From Anaeromyces robustus (Eukaryota): a stretch of DNA of 60,620 nucleotides. The translations under genes were made by a program, and so were the position numbers. Under the pieces are notes generated by a model. The model did no database searches, was not told the DNA's origin, and saw only the letters and a list, made by a program, of their open reading frames with translations. Below, piece after piece: positions 5,150-37,908 of the stretch. How positions within the stretch are numbered: the stretch's first letter is position 1; each line of letters starts with the position of its first letter. Where the stretch lies: NCBI GenBank assembly GCA_002104895.1, contig MCFG01000203.1:62001-122620 (forward strand), in the 5' to 3' direction.

Positions 5150-5201
5150 GTTTTTATTTTGTATAAAAATATACAAAATAAAACATAATAATACTAATAA
5201 T

Positions 5202-5204
<3 letters not shown>

Positions 5205-5242
<38 letters not shown>

Positions 5243-8200
5243 GCAATAAAATAATGAAAATTTTATTTAAATTTAATTTAAAAAGTACATGTTATAAAGT
5301 AATTGTACATATTAAAACTTAATCTAATAAAGAATAATAATTTATTATTTAATAGATAGTAATAATTTATAATTACTTCATATGGTATAGTGTATATTAT
5401 TAAATTAAATCAAGTTGGAAAGTTATTATCATTATTAGATGCGTGTGACCTACTGTCTTGTCCTACTGAATTGTCAGCTTCGACGCTCTTGGTTAGATTG
5501 TTGGGATACCTATTGAATAATGACCAGATCTGGCCACTAACAGTAGGCATAATTCTAAGTAAAAGTGCGGATGTACGTACCAAAAGTGGAACATCCGAAA
5601 AGGTGCTAGGTTTAAGTTGCGCCTTACAAAGACTGTTCCACTCCTCTTTCCCCAAGTTATAATGATTAACTCTTCCACCAAGAAGGAAATAATATACCCT
5701 ACTCCATTCCAACGAGTTGGAATGAAAATTTACCCCACTTGAAGCATTACTAACTAAATTATTATAATTAATACTATTATTTAAACTATTATTATTGTTG
5801 TTGATACTATAACTGAAAGTATTATTTAAGTTGTAAGTTAAACTAACATAATGAATAAAACTATTAGAAACTAAGAAAGTATTATTTCGTGAAGAATTCT
5901 CCAAGGAGGAGAAATTGTTGAAGTAATTAAAACCAAAAAAAATGTTGTTGACAGTTAAATTATTAATGAATTGAGAGTAGTTGTATAGAAAATATGTAGA
6001 TAAGCTAGTACTATTACTATTACTAACATTATTAATATTACTATTATCATTGCTATTACCATTATTATTACTATTAATATTAATATTACTATTACTACTG
6101 CTATTATTATTATAGATATTATCATAAATATTATTATTGTAGTTATTATTAAAATTATTAGAAAAGTTGATATTATCAGAACTAACTAAAGGTTTTCGAT
6201 TAACATACAAATAAATGGTTTCAAGATTGCCAAATAACTTAGAACGCCAATGATCGAATGTTGGGCATTCTAAAATCCAATGTTCGAAGGTTTGACTACC
6301 GCCTTTACAACAAGGACAGTAATCAGGGCAAGAGTCGGATACAAGTTTAGCGGCTTTAGCAATTTCACTATTGAATTTATAACCACTACGTATTTTGAGG
6401 AGCCAATTAAAGCCATAAGCCAAGTTAGGGTATTCAAGTTCAAGATGTAAATAATCACGAGATAATTCAAGGTGATTATCACAATAGGTAACAGCTTTAA
6501 CGGAGTCTTTTTTGACATCTCTATTCCAATAAAAAGTCAAGATATCTTCTCTAGAGCCAATTTTAGAAAGTTTCTTTGATAAAGTTCTGCTTTCTTTAGC
6601 CCATGTGTATTTTCTCATCTTCGGAATAATAGTAACTAACTTGGAAATAATACAATTAGAGTCTGCCCATCTCTTAAAACATTTATCTTGAGCAATGGCA
6701 CATTTGGCAGAAAGAGGAGGAATATTAAGATCTTTAGATACATTATATAAAGATATGAAGGAAGAGCGCTTCCTAAGACCTGCAATCCAAGAGAGTCCTT
6801 TATTAATTAGCCTTTGAGCACCGTTTGTTCTAGTTTTATTAGATCCAAGTAAAGGTGCAACGTATGATACTTGACTGACAACAACCGAATTAAAAACTGA
6901 TTTCTTGAAGGATATAGGCATATAAGGATTAATTAAAAATCCTCTAACAGAAAAAAGCGCTTTCCTAACTTTATTATTCGTCGATTTAATTATCGGTTTA
7001 AGAGATAAATCACTATCAAAAGGAATTCCCAAATACGTATAACAATTAGTTTTTGGAATAATTTGACCAGCAAGGTAAAAGGTAGGGTCACCTTTAACTT
7101 TAGAATTTTCTGCTTTTACAACCGTAGTTCCACATTTACCAATTCCGAATTCCATAAGGTTAAATTTAGCCCAATCATTAACTTTTTTCAAAAGCTTATT
7201 TAGTTTACTTCTAGTAGGTGCACAAAGGACAATATCATCGGCAAAGAGGCCCCCACAACAGTATTCGTTATCAATACAAACTCCATATTCGTTACAATCT
7301 CGAAAAATATCGTTGATGAAAAGGTTAAATAAGATAGGAGAGAGGGGACAACCCTGTCTAACACCTTTCTCAATATTGAAAGTATCCGAATATTGAGAGT
7401 CAAGTTTCACACAAGCTTTGGAAGATAAGTATAAGTTTTTAAGGAAATTATAACATTTTCCTCTAATTCCTAAGCATTCAAGTTTATTCAGAATATTATA
7501 AATAGGAACTGAATCATAAGCTTTTTTAAGGTCTAAAAAAGCCAAATAAGTATCTTTTCCCATATTCTGTCTGGTCTGACATATAGTACGAATGGAGACA
7601 AATAAACTGATACATTCTTCTTTATTACGAAAACCAAATTGTTCAGGTCTAATGAAATTATTCTTGTAAGCATATGTTGAGATTCTGGTAGTAACAATTT
7701 TTGAGATAATTTTAATACAGTTATTGATCAGGGATATACCTCTATAATTATTACAGTCATATAAGTCTCCTTTTTTAGGGATAGAAACAATACAAGCAGT
7801 ATTCCATAAATCCGGAAAGTCACCATCCCAAATACGGTTGTAAAATAAATGTAGAAAAGAGAGACCATAATTAGTAATATCAGAAGAGTCATCGGAGTTT
7901 CCAAAATCAGTAGAAATAGCTTTAAAAAATTCAATAGGAACATCATCAGGACCTGAAGCTTTAAATTTAGGGATATCAGAAATAGCTGATCGAATTTCCT
8001 CAATACTAATTTCACCATTAATATCCCACTCTATATTATTGCTGAAGTTATATAACTTATGGTTGGCAGGGTTGGACCAAAAAGGTTTATATAAACTATG
8101 ACCAGTAGAATCAGAAGCTAACTTTTCATAATGGTCATGCCAAACGTTAAGTTGTTCACGAGAAGAATAAACAATGTTGTCATCGTTATCTTTAATAGGA

Positions 8201-9919
8201 TGAAGTGAAAAGTTAGATGATTTACCAATTTTAGTATTCTTTTTGATCCATTTCCACCAATTCCTAGAATCTTTATTAATAGCCAACTGACACCCAACTG
8301 AAACCCAATGTTGATATTCAAGCATACGAAAGTGATTACACATCTTGTGGATATTATCACACAGCTTCTGATAATTATTGATAAGTCTAATATAATCATC
8401 AAGGGCACGAACAGAACCCAATTTTTTAATATCTTTGTAAGCCTTAACTTTGAGTTTCTGAAGGTTAAAGATTTTTTGAGACATATGAAACATAGATTCA
8501 TGAATATCAGGAGTAGATATAATTTCCAATTCATCAGCAATAGAATTAGCAGTAGATACAAACATATCATATATAGCATTAGAAGAATAATAATTATCTG
8601 TACATTCCTTCATAAGAATACTAAATCTATTACTAGTAGCAATTTTAATACTTTCGTCCAGACATTTGATTCTATTCCAACGAGCTGGTTTTTTAGGGAG
8701 TGAGAAAGTATTATTATCATCAAAATAATTTCCAAAAACAAGAAGAGGCTTATGATCGGAGATAGGAGAGAAATCAATAATTGAAGCTGAAGACAGAAGA
8801 TTTTTCATGGGTTCATTAATAATAGCATGGTCAATAGCAGAGGAACGACTTCCACTTACCCACGAGATAGGAGAACCATTGAGTTGAAATAAATACCAGC
8901 CATTTATATTAGAAACCCAATTTTGAATATCTTCAAGATTAATGTTAAAATCGCCAAGGAGAATAGAAGGATGATGTAAGTGAAGAGAAAACCATGTACA
9001 AGCTTCTGCTTTAGCAGATTTATGGTGTAAACTATGCCCTTTCTGAGGTATATAAATATTTCCAATAGAACACTTAGTGAAGTTCCACAAGGAATATGTC
9101 GTAACTGAGATAATATAATTCAAAGAAAAATCTTCAATAGAAGTCTGTAAAGACCTATTATAAAAGATATATAAACCTCTCAAACCAGGAATTGTATTAT
9201 TTGCTCTCTTACAGAAATATTTATATTTAGGTAAAGTGATTTTACAAGGAATAACATTACTAGAATTAGTACCATTACCAGTTTCTTGAAAACAAACAAA
9301 TAGCGGTTTAAAGAGACTAAAGAAATACAGAATACCATCTCTTTTCTTGTTATTCCACCCGTTAGTGTTCCAACTAAGACAAAAGGAAAATTCATTCAAA
9401 TTGTTCTTAGAAGTAAAAGAATTGTTGATTTCAGAAAAGTCAGTAATATTAATATCCTTAATGTTCTTTTTAGAGTGGCAAAGTTTTCTCCTGATAAGAG
9501 CAAAGGAAGGCTTGTGATTCTTCCTACTACATCGATGAAAGTTAATGGAACATTTTTTAATAATTAATTTGAAACTATCAATAAATTTATTAATATTCTC
9601 CTCAGAAGCTGTAGTTTTAATTTGATATAAATTATCATTAAGAAGAGAGGAATGTTTAACAGCAACGATGGTATTATTAAACTCAGGGAAATTCTTCTCA
9701 AGAAAATTTCTAAATTTTGGAAGAGTCCAAGAACGAATGCGACGGATAAAAATAACATAAGTATCTGAGATATCAATACCATGACACCTAATACCCCGTC
9801 TGATATAGTTAATCTTATTAGTATAGTTCGTATGATCCATTTGATAAGGCTGATAAGAATCTATATAAAAAAAAAATAATAAAATAAAAAAAATATAAAT
9901 GTATTATAATAGAAAATAG

Positions 9920-9964
<45 letters not shown>

Positions 9965-10574
9965 ATTTTAATATATAATTAAAAAATAAAAAAGTATATA
10001 AAAAAAAACTTAGCAATGAAAAGAATTATAGTAAATGACTGAGAAATATTGTTGAGAGAAAAAGTAAGAGATTCAACTGTGTAGTTGTATATATAATTTA
10101 ACGTTGTGAATGATGTATTAGTGAATAAAAAAACTTTTATTGTTGGTATGTAAAAAATTGTATTGTATAGTATTTATTGTGCTGTATTGATTGTGCTGTA
10201 TATAAGAATAATAGTGTAGAATTGATAGAAACATAAAAAACTTAATTGTAAAAAGAACTGCAATATAAACTAAATAACATAAATAGTGTAAGGTAATTAT
10301 TTCAAAGAAAAAAAAAAAAAATGGATTGTAATAAAAAGTCGTACTTTTTATTACTAACATTATCATTGCGCATAATGTTACCTACTTCTTTAACCGAATA
10401 GTGAATATAAATAATCATTACACCAAGCATTATCATTGCGCATAATGCCCAACTTAGATACAAGTACAATATCATAAGTTGTAACAATGCCATTGACGTC
10501 GCCATGTCTCGACAGGCATTCTTCCTCTTCCGACCATTCCAATAAATTGGAAAGTACAGGACCTCAGAAGAGGG
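5205..10574 (-). mobile_element. Full-length non-LTR retrotransposon (LINE), copy 1
   Basis: Poly(T) 5204-5241 is the poly(A) tail on the minus strand. TSD actaataataat at 5193-5204 and 10575-10586. Identity with copy 2 stops exactly at ...gaagaggg (10574). Contains an intact APE-RT ORF. Confidence 0.95.
5410..9840 (-). CDS. LINE polyprotein: N-terminal domain + AP-like endonuclease + reverse transcriptase + CCHC zinc knuckle, 1476 aa
   Basis: APE motifs SWNTNG, FQET, NIYIP, GDFN, IDH, SDH. RT motifs GPDD, NYRGISL, QFGFR, DLKKAYDSV, GVRQGCPLSP, FADD. Knuckle CPCC-x8-H-x4-C (CPCCKGGSQTFEHWILEC). Confidence 0.95.
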   Translation of the reverse strand: MDHTNYTNKINYIRRGIRCHGIDISDTYVIFIRRIRSWTLPKFRNFLEKNFPEFNNTIVAVKHSSLLNDNLYQIKTTASEENINKFIDSFKLIIKKCSINFHRCSRKNHKPSFALIRRKLCHSKKNIKDINITDFSEINNSFTSKNNLNEFSFCLSWNTNGWNNKKRDGILYFFSLFKPLFVCFQETGNGTNSSNVIPCKITLPKYKYFCKRANNTIPGLRGLYIFYNRSLQTSIEDFSLNYIISVTTYSLWNFTKCSIGNIYIPQKGHSLHHKSAKAEACTWFSLHLHHPSILLGDFNINLEDIQNWVSNINGWYLFQLNGSPISWVSGSRSSAIDHAIINEPMKNLLSSASIIDFSPISDHKPLLVFGNYFDDNNTFSLPKKPARWNRIKCLDESIKIATSNRFSILMKECTDNYYSSNAIYDMFVSTANSIADELEIISTPDIHESMFHMSQKIFNLQKLKVKAYKDIKKLGSVRALDDYIRLINNYQKLCDNIHKMCNHFRMLEYQHWVSVGCQLAINKDSRNWWKWIKKNTKIGKSSNFSLHPIKDNDDNIVYSSREQLNVWHDHYEKLASDSTGHSLYKPFWSNPANHKLYNFSNNIEWDINGEISIEEIRSAISDIPKFKASGPDDVPIEFFKAISTDFGNSDDSSDITNYGLSFLHLFYNRIWDGDFPDLWNTACIVSIPKKGDLYDCNNYRGISLINNCIKIISKIVTTRISTYAYKNNFIRPEQFGFRNKEECISLFVSIRTICQTRQNMGKDTYLAFLDLKKAYDSVPIYNILNKLECLGIRGKCYNFLKNLYLSSKACVKLDSQYSDTFNIEKGVRQGCPLSPILFNLFINDIFRDCNEYGVCIDNEYCCGGLFADDIVLCAPTRSKLNKLLKKVNDWAKFNLMEFGIGKCGTTVVKAENSKVKGDPTFYLAGQIIPKTNCYTYLGIPFDSDLSLKPIIKSTNNKVRKALFSVRGFLINPYMPISFKKSVFNSVVVSQVSYVAPLLGSNKTRTNGAQRLINKGLSWIAGLRKRSSFISLYNVSKDLNIPPLSAKCAIAQDKCFKRWADSNCIISKLVTIIPKMRKYTWAKESRTLSKKLSKIGSREDILTFYWNRDVKKDSVKAVTYCDNHLELSRDYLHLELEYPNLAYGFNWLLKIRSGYKFNSEIAKAAKLVSDSCPDYCPCCKGGSQTFEHWILECPTFDHWRSKLFGNLETIYLYVNRKPLVSSDNINFSNNFNNNYNNNIYDNIYNNNSSSNSNININSNNNGNSNDNSNINNVSNSNSTSLSTYFLYNYSQFINNLTVNNIFFGFNYFNNFSSLENSSRNNTFLVSNSFIHYVSLTYNLNNTFSYSINNNNNSLNNSINYNNLVSNASSGVNFHSNSLEWSRVYYFLLGGRVNHYNLGKEEWNSLCKAQLKPSTFSDVPLLVRTSALLLRIMPTVSGQIWSLFNRYPNNLTKSVEADNSVGQDSRSHASNNDNNFPT

Positions 10575-11328
10575 ACTAATAATAATAATAATAATAAAAT
10601 TAATATAGTTTAAACAAAATAAAAAAATTGATACAATAAAATAAAAAAATTAATACGGTTTAAACAAAATAAAAAAATTAATACGGTTTAAACAAAATAA
10701 AAAAAAAATAGAGCAATTTAAAAGTTTAAACAAAATAAAAAAAAAAAAAAAAATAGAACAATTTAAAAGTTTAAATTAAATAAAAAAAATAAAAACAAGA
10801 TAGAATAAAAAAAAAAGAATATAATATTAAACAGAATAATTTATGTATATATTTTCATTTTTTATTTAGTATTTTAATGTTTTATTTTTTCATTTTTTTT
10901 TATATTATTTTATCTTAAACTATTAATTTTTTTTTAATTGAAAAACGAATAATTATAAATTATTATTTAATTTACCAGAAAAACAATGTTTTTAATTATA
11001 TATACTGAAAAAGTATATGAAAAAATAATAAAAAAAGTTAATAAAAAAAAAATTTTTTTTTTAAAATTGTTGTATTTTTTAAATTTCGAATTTGATATTT
11101 CGGTATATAATAATTTAATTATTATTATGTTAATATAATAATTATTTGAAGGTTTATTTGTTTGATTGATTATTTATTTATTTTATTTTTGTTTTTGTTT
11201 TTTTTTTTTTTTGGTTTTCTTGCTTGATTGTTTGTTTTTATTAATTGATATAATTAATATTTTATTTTTTATATTTATATATTTTTATAATTTCATATTT
11301 TATATAAAATTTTTATTTATTTATTTAT

Positions 11329-34111: not shown

Positions 34112-36887
34112 TAAGTTTAAATTATTTTCATAAATGTATTAATATTATTTATTTTGATATAAATATTTTTTTTTTTGAATTCTTTTGAATTTTATTTTTA
34201 TATAAAAATATTTTTTCATATCAAAAACAAAAAAAAAATAAAATAAAGTAAAATAAAAAATAAAATTAAAAAAATAAAATAAAAAAAAATAAAATAAAAT
34301 GAAAAAAGATAATAAATGGATAGATTATTTATTCATAAGGTTAAAAAAAATATAAAACAACAAAATATTAATAAAGTTGACAATAATTATTGAAATTTAA
34401 TTACTTTTAACATATATAGATTGTGGCTTATTATTGTGGCTTATTATTCTATTATACAGATAATTCATAAATCATATTTTAATTGTTTTTTATTTTTCAT
34501 TAATTTAAATAACATTTTTAGATATTATTTTATATTACTTTATTTTTGATTACACTAAATATGATATATATTTTAATATAATAGTTTATACTATTTAATA
34601 ACTAAACCTATATTTTGATTTAGTAATTGGTGATGTAGTTAAACAATTAAATAATAATTAAGTGAATAACATAGAGTCATTTAATTATCTTTAAAAGATC
34701 TATTAAATTTAATATAATAACGATTTAATCATATTCTATTGAACTTCATTTTTTTTCTTTATCAAATTCTATTGAACTTTATTTTTTTCTTTCTTTATAG
34801 GCAGGCATATCACTATGCACATGATATTCGTTCTCCAGTTCTTGCGGGATGAATGACAGCCTCTCTGCTCGTTCATATTTGGGTACACTTCTCAGTCTTC
34901 GCTTGGAATCAAATACTATTGAACTTCTAAATTTATTAAACCAATCTTATAAAATATGTCCGGATGCTCAAAGATATTCTACAGAAAAATGTAATAATAA
35001 TATGTACGTATATAATTTATCGATGTTTGTTAATGGTGATAATAAATATTCAATAAAATGTAAAAAAGGTCAACGGCATGAAATATCTTGATAATTCTGA
35101 ATGTTATTCTGGAATCTTTATTTTTATTACAATATTTTGTTACATCAAAGATAATGATGAAACAGTTCATCTCTCTAAGACTGCCGTTATTGTTAAATTT
35201 TATTAGTTTAGTTTTATTGGTAATAATAAGATGTCTTAATTCTTGCTTTCATAAAGCTTATCTAGTATATTGTTTTATTTTTTTTGTATAATTTATATTA
35301 TACGTTCGGTATATATATATTGATTCTAGAATTTAATAAGTAAATAATAAATGATAAATATTAAATAATAAATAATAAATAATAAATAATAAATAATAAA
35401 ACCATCATCATTTCTTTTCTTTTTTACTTAATTCATTCCCATATTTTTTGTTAAGTATACTTTAATTGTACCAAAAATCAAAATATTTACTGATTATCTA
35501 TAAAAAATACATAAATAATTAATAATTATACTTAAACCATAAGAATTGAATTAGGTTCATTTTAACTTCCATTATGTATTTCTTTTTATTTTTTTCTTTT
35601 TAAACAAAATATTGAATATTACGTAGTATAAGATTTTATATTTTAAAATTTCAATACAATAATAAGTGTAAATCTTTTTTTTTTTTTTTGGTTTAAGTTC
35701 AAAAAAAAAAAAAAAATTTTAATATTGAAACAAAATCTTGTTTATTATAGAATTTAATAGTTATTCAAAAACTATTTTTATCAAAGCTTTAATATTTAAA
35801 TATAAAAATTTACAAGAATAATTAATATTTATAATTAATATTTTGTTATTAATACAATAACAAAAATAGTATTCATATATAAAATACTTACATTAATTTT
35901 GGTTTTATTATCTTCTATAATTAATATATTGTGTTCATATGGGTAATAGATATATCGTAAATATAAAATATTAAATTATTTCTTTAATAAACATAAAAGT
36001 TATATTTACATGTATTATTGTTAAATTATTATTAATATATTTTAAAACATCTATTTTAATTAATAATATCTTTACACTTTTTACAAAAATTTTCATATTA
36101 TACAGATATAAAAATTCACTTATCTAACTTTTGGAACAACAATACGTTATTCTTACAGGATAAAATTAAAGTATATTAAAAACGTTATAAAATATATTAC
36201 ATACATGAATTGTGTACTATTATTATTAATTATTTTAAAATATAGAATAAAAAAATTTATTTATCAAATTATTTACTAAAATTTATTCATTTATTTATTT
36301 AGATAGATATAAAGATTATTTATATAAAATGTTTTATATATACAATAGTAAAATAAATTTATTATATTTTATCATATATTTAGTTTATCTTAAGTCATAA
36401 AACATAACACTAACTAAATCAAAATATCTTATTAAGTATTGATTTGTTTTGCTGTAATTACCAGCATAATTATTAAGTTCATAATAACTAAATATATAAT
36501 TGTTTTGTAGCCCAATTATCAAATTATATATATTATGGCAATTTATTATTAATTTATTATTTTTAATTATATTTTAAAAAAAAAATTAGATCAATTAGTA
36601 ACATCTCCTTAAATTCTCTAAATGTCATTACTATATAGTTAATAAAATATCTATTATTTAGTATAATTCATGCATAATAATAATAATAAAAGAAAAAAAA
36701 AACAATATTTTCATTAAAACTATGTATTTTCATTAAAAATAAAATATTTAATTATTTTTAAGAATAGTTTAAATTCCTTGTTATTTTTTAACCTTAAAAG
36801 ATCGTACTTCATTAAATTAAAAAATAATATATTTTTTTCAGTAATTTCTATTTATTTTTTATTTGATCATGTATTAATTAATTCTAT

Positions 36888-37632
36888 TATTATGTTAATA
36901 CACAATAAAATGAAAGTCAAAATGTTTTTTTTTTTTTGTGTAACATAATAATAAAATATATACATAAATAAATGAAATTAAAAAAAAAAAAAAATAACTT
37001 GAAATTCTGTTTTTTTAATTTAAACTAAAATATTATTTTGCATTACTATTTTAGTCGACCAGTTTCTATCCTGGTTGTTAAGGCGTTTCCTTAGCATACA
37101 TAAGGCTTCTGGATCGACACCGCATCTACCCCAAGCACAAGTGGTTTTCTCCTTCACGGGTTTTACACTGTGGCAAGGTAGTGCACAGGTATAGTATTTG
37201 TGGCGTAGCTACTCACGCCTCATTAAATAATATAAGTATATGAGTAGATCTTTAAGTCTAATAATGTGGGGTGCGGCTCTAAATTATTGGGCGGTTTCCT
37301 TGGTGACTACTATTCATATGTGGGGCTTGTAGACTGGACCCGTTATTAAGTTAGCGTTAGGGTTTAAGTACAAATGTAAAATATATGAATATACCAAGGG
37401 CGTCGACGCCGAAAAGGTAAGGCAGGGAATTTAATTCCGATACATTCATGTGAAAAATCACATGATAAGTCTATAAAAAAAAAAAAAGCATTACTATTAT
37501 GTCAATACACAAACAAATAAAAGTCAAAATTTCATTTATTTATGTATATATTTTATTATTAACATAATAATAATGCAAAATAATATTTTAGTTTAAATTA
37601 AAAAAACAGAATTTCAAGTTATTTTTTTTTTT
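36888..37632. repeat. Local duplication/inversion flanking the SINE
   Basis: 36990-37048 is the reverse complement of ~37568-37627 (aaataacttgaaattctgtttttttaatttaaactaaaatattattttgcatta). 36946-36979 is inverted at ~37528-37560. 36888-36923 is an imperfect direct repeat at 37495-37530. Confidence 0.8.
37051..37487 (+). mobile_element. Candidate tRNA-derived SINE with LINE-related 3' end
   Basis: TSD gcattactatt at 37040-37050 and 37488-37498; A13 tail 37475-37487; GC much higher than the flanks. A-box-like tatcctggttg (37067-37077), anticodon-loop-like cttagcat and B-box ggatcgacacc (37111-37121). The 3' motif 37393-37423 is similar to the LINE 3' end. Confidence 0.8.
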
Positions 37633-37908
37633 AAAATTTATATTTTTGATGAAAAATGTTTTATCCTAAATTTTCATAGTTGTGAAAAAATTATTACTTC
37701 TCCACAGATTATTTTAAAAAGAAAATTAAAAGCTATATCTAAAATCATTTTAATTAACATCAAATATATAATTATCAACAAAAGAAAAAAATTATGATAT
37801 ATATCTGAAAAATTTAAGATTATTTTGATGATAGTAATAATATAGAAATTTTACTTGAAATTCTCATAAAATTTCTATATATAAAAGTAATTAAAAAATT
37901 ATTATTAA

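Follow-up and report, generated by a model that had tools for sequence, protein, structure and literature searches.

The goal of this analysis was to decide what kind of mobile element lies at positions 37051 to 37487 (+ strand) of the stretch of Anaeromyces robustus DNA described here, all 60,620 nucleotides of which we call the window, and the reading that we favor, as a fairly probable one, is that it is a young copy of a non-autonomous poly(A) retroposon of the SINE type. Such an element would be comprised of three parts: a degenerate tRNA-related head in which the B box is good and the A box weak, a structured and unique body of ~340 nt, and an A tail. It is probably a short parasite that was copied by the neighboring active LINE.

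The insert is 437 bp long, is non-coding and is present as one copy in the window. Its GC content is 0.398 (39.8%, or about 40%), against 0.118 (11.8%) in the flanks, taken as ~1 kb on each side, and the window is AT-rich throughout, with 8-25% GC in most of its 1-kb bins. An exact 11-bp target-site duplication, GCATTACTATT, borders the insert on the left (37040-37050) and on the right (37488-37498), and the insert ends in a tail of 13 A residues (37475-37487, + strand). The initial annotation had described a GC-richer insert of 437 bp with this duplication and this tail, and its borders were confirmed in every respect. A 67-nt inverted duplicate of 36984-37050, with 99% identity, is found at 37566-37632, and reading onward from it gives the target without the insert, so that the uninterrupted sequence represents an empty-site paralogue. 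Because the inverted duplicate runs across the insertion point, it acts as an internal empty-site control, and with this control the retroposition signature is real. The segment 37051-37487 is a product of target-primed reverse transcription, with an 11-bp duplication, an A tail and an intact empty-site paralogue; the same mode of insertion had been proposed in the annotation and is supported by the inverted paralogue, which keeps the target intact. The insertion site lies within a local duplication, whose direct repeats at 36885-36934 and 37492-37541 share 82% identity. With both these direct repeats (82%) and the inverted repeats (99%), the DNA into which the element inserted itself amounts to a small, AT-rich palindromic structure. 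In a BLASTN search of the 60.6-kb window with 7-letter words the element matched only itself; other matches covered at most 47 columns at E values of 0.002 or higher, and the best of them fell on the A tail.

The head of the element was compared with a genuine tRNA, the tRNA-Val(TAC) at 60254-60326 (+ strand), which scores 63 bits in Rfam. T runs are present 3' of this tRNA gene, the first TTTT at ~60341 and a TTTTTT at ~60351. The tRNA-related head (37060-37132, + strand) aligns without gaps to positions 1-73 of the tRNA-Val, with 37 of 73 positions identical. When the ungapped comparison is made in the register that begins at 37059, 38 of 75 positions match; shuffled versions of the head gave a mean of 26.4 (sd 1.9) and none of 1000 reached 38, while real 90-nt control segments taken from the element body and the LINE (n=211) reached a maximum of 33. 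Within the core of the head, 37074-37122, which corresponds to tRNA positions 15-63, 32 of 49 positions are identical. The local alignment score of head and tRNA-Val is 30, compared to a mean of 14.6 (sd 2.6) for shuffles, with 0 of 1000 as good. Sliding the tRNA-Val over both strands of the window (~121,000 positions) placed 37059 as the best non-self position with a score of 38, followed by a next best of 34, over a background with a mean of 19.6 and sd of 3.45. A sequence-only tRNA profile also gave 37074-37122 as the best non-self match of the 8 that it returned, with 9.6 bits and a window-wide E of 0.063, a modest value whose calibration is rough. The gap-free alignment proposed in the annotation therefore holds at 38/75 with 0/1000 shuffles as good. 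Judged by its sequence, the head appears significantly tRNA-like, above what is expected by chance.

The promoter-like elements and the structure of the head were examined against what is known of tRNA genes. A B-box-like segment, GGATCGACACC, is present at 37111-37121 (+ strand), where the annotation had placed it, with one mismatch to the consensus; at this level of mismatch the window holds 4 sites against 0.34 expected, and 2 of the 4 belong to the true tRNA. An A-box-like segment, TATCCTGGTTG, had also been reported, at 37067-37077 (+ strand). It is present and its start lies 44 nt before that of the B-box-like segment, a spacing as in tRNA, but the segment itself is weak and matches 6 of the 9 specified positions of the consensus. 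Of the stem pairs the head keeps 4 of 5 in the T stem, 3 of 4 in the D stem, 2 of 5 in the anticodon stem and 2 of 7 in the acceptor stem, so the anticodon and acceptor stems are broken, in agreement with the annotation. The equivalent of the anticodon loop reads TTAGCAT, in which the residues that correspond to tRNA positions 33 and 37 are T and A, respectively. Runs of TTTT, which could stop Pol III, are found inside the element at 37145-37148 and 37161-37164. ARAGORN reported no tRNA in the head, relaxed thresholds included, and Rfam gave no match at E<=10 over 37045-37200 (156 nt), a strict threshold because the E-values are multiplied by 4227 families. A covariance model that was built on the window's tRNA with its cloverleaf returned 12 matches, and the element was absent from them. 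The annotation had named the lack of a tRNA covariance-model score as a finding that would speak against its proposal, and no such score was found for the head. Since the sequence and the promoter geometry are tRNA-related and the structure-aware methods are negative, the head is best described as a decayed tRNA derivative.

The body of the element (37133-37474, + strand) is unique, with no match to an Rfam family and no similarity to the LINE. The predicted fold of 37051-37474, which includes the head and excludes the A tail, was better than 100 of 100 shuffles (z -3.51). None of the stop-to-stop frames that overlap the element is longer than 62 aa. The longest sense frame (46 aa) had no relative among proteins of 25-81 aa, and a comparison with 1.84 billion representative sequences gave three weak matches (E 2e-7 to 7e-4), none of them near-identical. 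A coding origin of the element was rejected on these grounds, that is, the lack of any frame above 62 aa and of a homologue of similar length for the 46-aa frame. Rfam searches over 36900-37650 (751 nt) returned three junk matches with E >5, and an origin from 7SL, 5S, snRNA, snoRNA or a ribozyme had no support from Rfam at E<=10. Within the body, a GC-rich motif of 39 nt (37395-37433, + strand), made of a 12-nt palindrome and a small hairpin, overlaps the motif that the annotation had assigned to the tail. This motif recurs, with 36 of 39 positions matching, in two otherwise unlike contigs of 686 nt (run X3) and 809 nt (run X2), in which loosely similar sequence follows it, and it could be a domain held in common with another mobile element. 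Elsewhere in the window, a GC-richer island (0.33) at 54901-55340 on the minus strand contains a short uninterrupted ORF with its ATG at 55340 and is probably a housekeeping gene.

The window contains two full-length copies of a LINE, both on the minus strand. Copy 1 (5204-10575) has an ORF at 5410-9840 that encodes 1476 aa with APE and RT, ends in an A37 tail and is flanked by a 10-bp duplication, TTATTATTAG, at 5194-5203 and 10576-10585. Copy 2 (48850-54209) has an ORF at 49054-53478 that encodes 1474 aa, a tail of ~A35 and a 14-bp duplication, TTAATATATAAGCA, at 48836-48849 and 54210-54223. The presence of an autonomous LINE twice in the window, as annotated, is thus borne out by two intact copies with their own duplications and poly(A) tails. 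The copies are 99.07% identical over 5402 columns. Both ORFs contain the domains RVT_1 (4e-37) and Exo_endo_phos (2e-6), the nearest solved chains are those of human L1 ORF2p (3e-25), which score better than R2 (1e-17), and 1106 of 3345 candidate relatives satisfy E<=1e-20; one relative, with 59% identity, is named after an Orpinomyces gene-model set. The distance from the LINE 5' end to the start of the ORF is ~730 nt, and a second ORF of at least 150 aa is lacking. With APE and RT in one ORF, poly(A) and duplications of variable length, the LINE has the sequence features of an L1-like, APE-type non-LTR retrotransposon and would be classified as such. The 99.07% identity, the intact ORFs, the A35-37 tails and the differing duplications suggest that this LINE family is active now or was so very recently.

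The initial annotation had combined a tRNA head, a body and a LINE-derived tail into one architecture, of which the tRNA-like head and the A-tailed insert stand and the LINE-derived tail is at chance level. The 19/23 match between the tail of the element and the LINE does exist in the alignment. It scores 26 by itself, and comparisons of the element with the whole LINE on both strands gave scores of 26-30, against shuffles with a mean of 26.2, sd of 2.5 and maximum of 37; there is accordingly no similarity above shuffle level between the element and the LINE on either strand. The most favorable restricted test, in which the last 144 nt of the element were compared with the last 400 nt of the LINE, gave p values between 0.016 and 0.08 depending on the scoring. 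On the LINE, the match falls inside the ORF, ~60-80 nt before the stop and ~230 nt from the poly(A), and is for this reason not collinear with the 3' ends. A LINE-derived tail was rejected, given alignment scores at or near chance and a match within the LINE ORF. Because no 3' sequence is shared, recognition must go through the A tail if the window LINE is the partner. A-tail recognition is a feature of L1-type systems, and by analogy with these the two LINE copies of the window could mobilize the element via its A tail.

The element is also found in public sequencing runs. Of 24 runs listed, 20, from 18 studies, hold 0.81-0.97 of the sampled 31-letter words of the element, and 6 of these 20 are on record as RNA. 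Contigs were examined in four runs (X1, X2, X3 and X17), two of which are on record as RNA, with X3 being guessed to be RNA; RNA libraries may contain DNA, and contig depth cannot be used to rank the parts of a gene. In X3, a run of one organism, a 501-nt contig with a depth of 765 matches 37054-37487 with a single difference (1 in 434 nt), an A for T at 37201. This difference indicates that the dominant contig and the window copy stem from different loci, and it would also explain why single-organism runs hold 0.92 of the words. The X3 contig is single and clean, shows no branching at the borders of the element, and carries 62 nt of unlike sequence upstream of the element start; the contig in X1 has the same upstream sequence and extends it to 255 nt. 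Past 37487, the corresponding contigs of X17 and X1 continue with 9-11 A's. Diverged sequences were found as well: a copy with 21 differences and one gap over 37371-37487, which has its own degenerate A-rich tail followed by a different flank, and a second variant of the head with 7 differences in 62 nt. Run X2 holds 0.92 of the element words but only a 39-nt piece in contigs, and a filter may have dropped records.

Some contigs, from two studies, are joined to a sequence that we take to be the Illumina adapter. These begin at 37062/63 (X3, X17), not at 37054, and end at 37188 (X1, X17), which suggests that an RNA sampled at very high depth has fixed fragment ends there. The first of these ends, at 37062/63, is 2-3 nt away from the tRNA-like +1 position. 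In the contigs examined, depth along the element, which is up to ~190,000 in X1, looks higher over 37083-37236, keeping in mind the limit on contig depth given above. Inspection by eye of the fixed RNA ends showed neither an HDV-like P1 helix nor an H/ACA layout. Scans of assembled collections were empty: 0 matches were obtained for an exact 24-mer (37166-37189) in contigs of metagenomes, genomes and viruses, for a degenerate 34-mer (37398-37431) in those of metagenomes and viruses, and for a 33-mer (37089-37121) in those of genomes. As the sequences in these collections are for the most part of prokaryotic, viral or environmental origin, the empty scans say nothing on the copy number in the fungus.

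The SINE reading draws strength from the position of the 5' end. The tRNA-like block begins 9 nt inside the end that is defined by the duplication (37051), and the homology of the dominant contig begins at 37054, 3 nt inside that same end. Taken together, the element end at 37051 and the contig homology start at 37054 give two loci with the same 5' boundary, located just upstream of the tRNA-like part. In all, the contigs represent at least one other locus with a 5' boundary at 37054 and at least two diverged relatives. Both positions, 37051 and 37054, lie 13-16 nt before the A-box-like segment, about where Pol III would be expected to start. The element would have an internal Pol III promoter, with G37054, 13 nt ahead of the A-box-like segment, as the approximate start of transcription; the enzyme for insertion would be supplied by an L1-like APE+RT LINE such as the two copies in the window, and the RNA would be picked up via its A tail. 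The insertions of the window LINE have duplications of 10-14 bp and poly(A), the same kind as the 11 bp and A13 of the element. Speaking against a free Pol III transcript, the dominant contig, present in one RNA library and in X3, continues 62-255 nt upstream, which is not expected; this extension could mean that another copy is embedded in a longer transcript, or that the parent RNA is itself longer. A wider proposal, which we put forward tentatively and hold to be possible rather than probable, is that anaerobic gut fungi carry a currently active LINE/SINE system whose master is a very abundant, structured, polyadenylated and tRNA-headed ncRNA, similar to BC1. This RNA would be expressed in many cultures as well as in metatranscriptomes of guts or enrichments, and its processing would take place at a fixed site close to the tRNA-like +1 position, giving the ends at 37062/63.

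The same upstream extension of 62-255 nt keeps as a rival the view that the insert derives from a longer non-coding transcript, abundant and polyadenylated (a lncRNA, a long 3' UTR or a spacer transcript), as a 5'-truncated processed retrocopy that a LINE made once or a few times, instead of belonging to an independent SINE family, with the tRNA-like stretch being an internal feature of the parent RNA or a coincidence. We regard this as rather unlikely. The dominant contig agrees with it in that it matches 37054-37487, goes on upstream in both X3 and X1, reaches poly(A) at the same 3' end as the element and is unbranched at the element borders, and the one copy in the window, the tRNA profile E of 0.063 and the negative structure-aware tools are also what it would lead one to expect. 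On this view, however, chance would have had to place the truncation no more than ~10 nt upstream of the sole tRNA-like block, the likelihood of which we put at a few per cent if the parent was at least 690 nt long, and the diverged copy with its own A-rich tail and different flank, together with the other variants, indicates repeated retroposition over time. A GC content of 40-50% and a strong fold would also be unusual for a UTR amid flanks of 12% GC.

Truncation at the 5' end is common for LINEs, and the insert might instead be a 3'-terminal piece, all of it 3' UTR, left by an autonomous retrotransposon that was truncated at its 5' end and belongs to a different family, one absent from the window. 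The contigs that share the 36/39 motif and loosely similar following sequence, as the 3' ends of related LINEs might, and the extension of the contig upstream of the element are in keeping with this. We find it improbable, as the element has no similarity to the window LINE on either strand, the sense frame that runs into the upstream extension has no RT-like or near-identical protein among the 1.84 billion representatives, and the 5' end of the element is precisely where the tRNA-like head is found. That no retroposition took place, and that a flanking repeat arose by chance in low-complexity AT-rich DNA or that the insert is an assembly artefact or foreign DNA, is a reading that the AT-rich, locally duplicated flanks with their many imperfect repeats might invite. 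It is close to refuted: the perfect 11-bp repeat lies directly against the GC step at one end and against the A13 at the other, the inverted paralogue keeps an uninterrupted target, and the same sequence is present in 20 independent runs. The reading as a SINE-type retroposon is the one that we carry forward.

If family status holds, the element would be the first SINE described for the Neocallimastigomycota and would show directly that LINE-driven retrotransposition took place very recently in anaerobic gut fungi, the recent activity being indicated by a copy one base off the dominant contig and by two LINE copies that are 99% identical. A full-text literature search found nothing joining Neocallimastigomycota and SINEs. 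Among the matches listed for anaerobic fungi, transposable elements and LINE, none was, in the part of each record available, about SINEs of these fungi, and the partial records listed for Neocallimastix and non-LTR likewise included none on SINEs. The extreme AT content of anaerobic gut fungal genomes makes their assembly and annotation difficult, and a GC-rich, abundantly represented repeat would matter for annotation since it could pass for a gene or ncRNA. Insertion polymorphism of the element could provide strain markers and, again if family status holds, a Pol III-type promoter native to these fungi, together with retrotransposition machinery that is active, would be of use for tool building. 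Existing knowledge of how SINEs work is unchanged by the element.

L1-type LINEs make processed retrocopies of abundant cellular RNAs in trans, and rodent BC1 is the RNA of a master gene. The element resembles such retrocopies and BC1 in its poly(A), its duplication and its near identity (1/434 nt) to a deeply covered contig of an RNA library, and it resembles processed retrocopies in being possibly 5'-truncated; it differs from them in that its 5' end coincides with the tRNA-like block and in that older, diverged copies have tails of their own. In the 'stringent' LINE/SINE pairs, the SINE tail is derived from the 3' end of the LINE. Compared with these pairs (see PMC4176376), the element has the same head-body-tail layout but lacks the shared 3' end, the alignments of element and LINE being at shuffle level. 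Among fungi, tRNA-related SINEs are described in ascomycetes, for example the AfuSINE2 families of Aspergillus fumigatus (PMC5063351). The element is probably a new member of the tRNA-derived SINE kind. In contrast to other members, its head is too degenerate for any tRNA detector and its dominant contig carries extra upstream sequence, and at 437 bp it is long for a typical SINE. Like the tRNA-derived SINEs of poly(A)-recognizing, L1-like 'relaxed' LINEs, it is short and non-coding and has a head that is tRNA-related in sequence, with B-box- and A-box-like segments at tRNA spacing, and it shares with tRNA-derived SINEs an unrelated body, an A tail, a duplication of ~10 bp and the coexistence of an intact APE+RT LINE.
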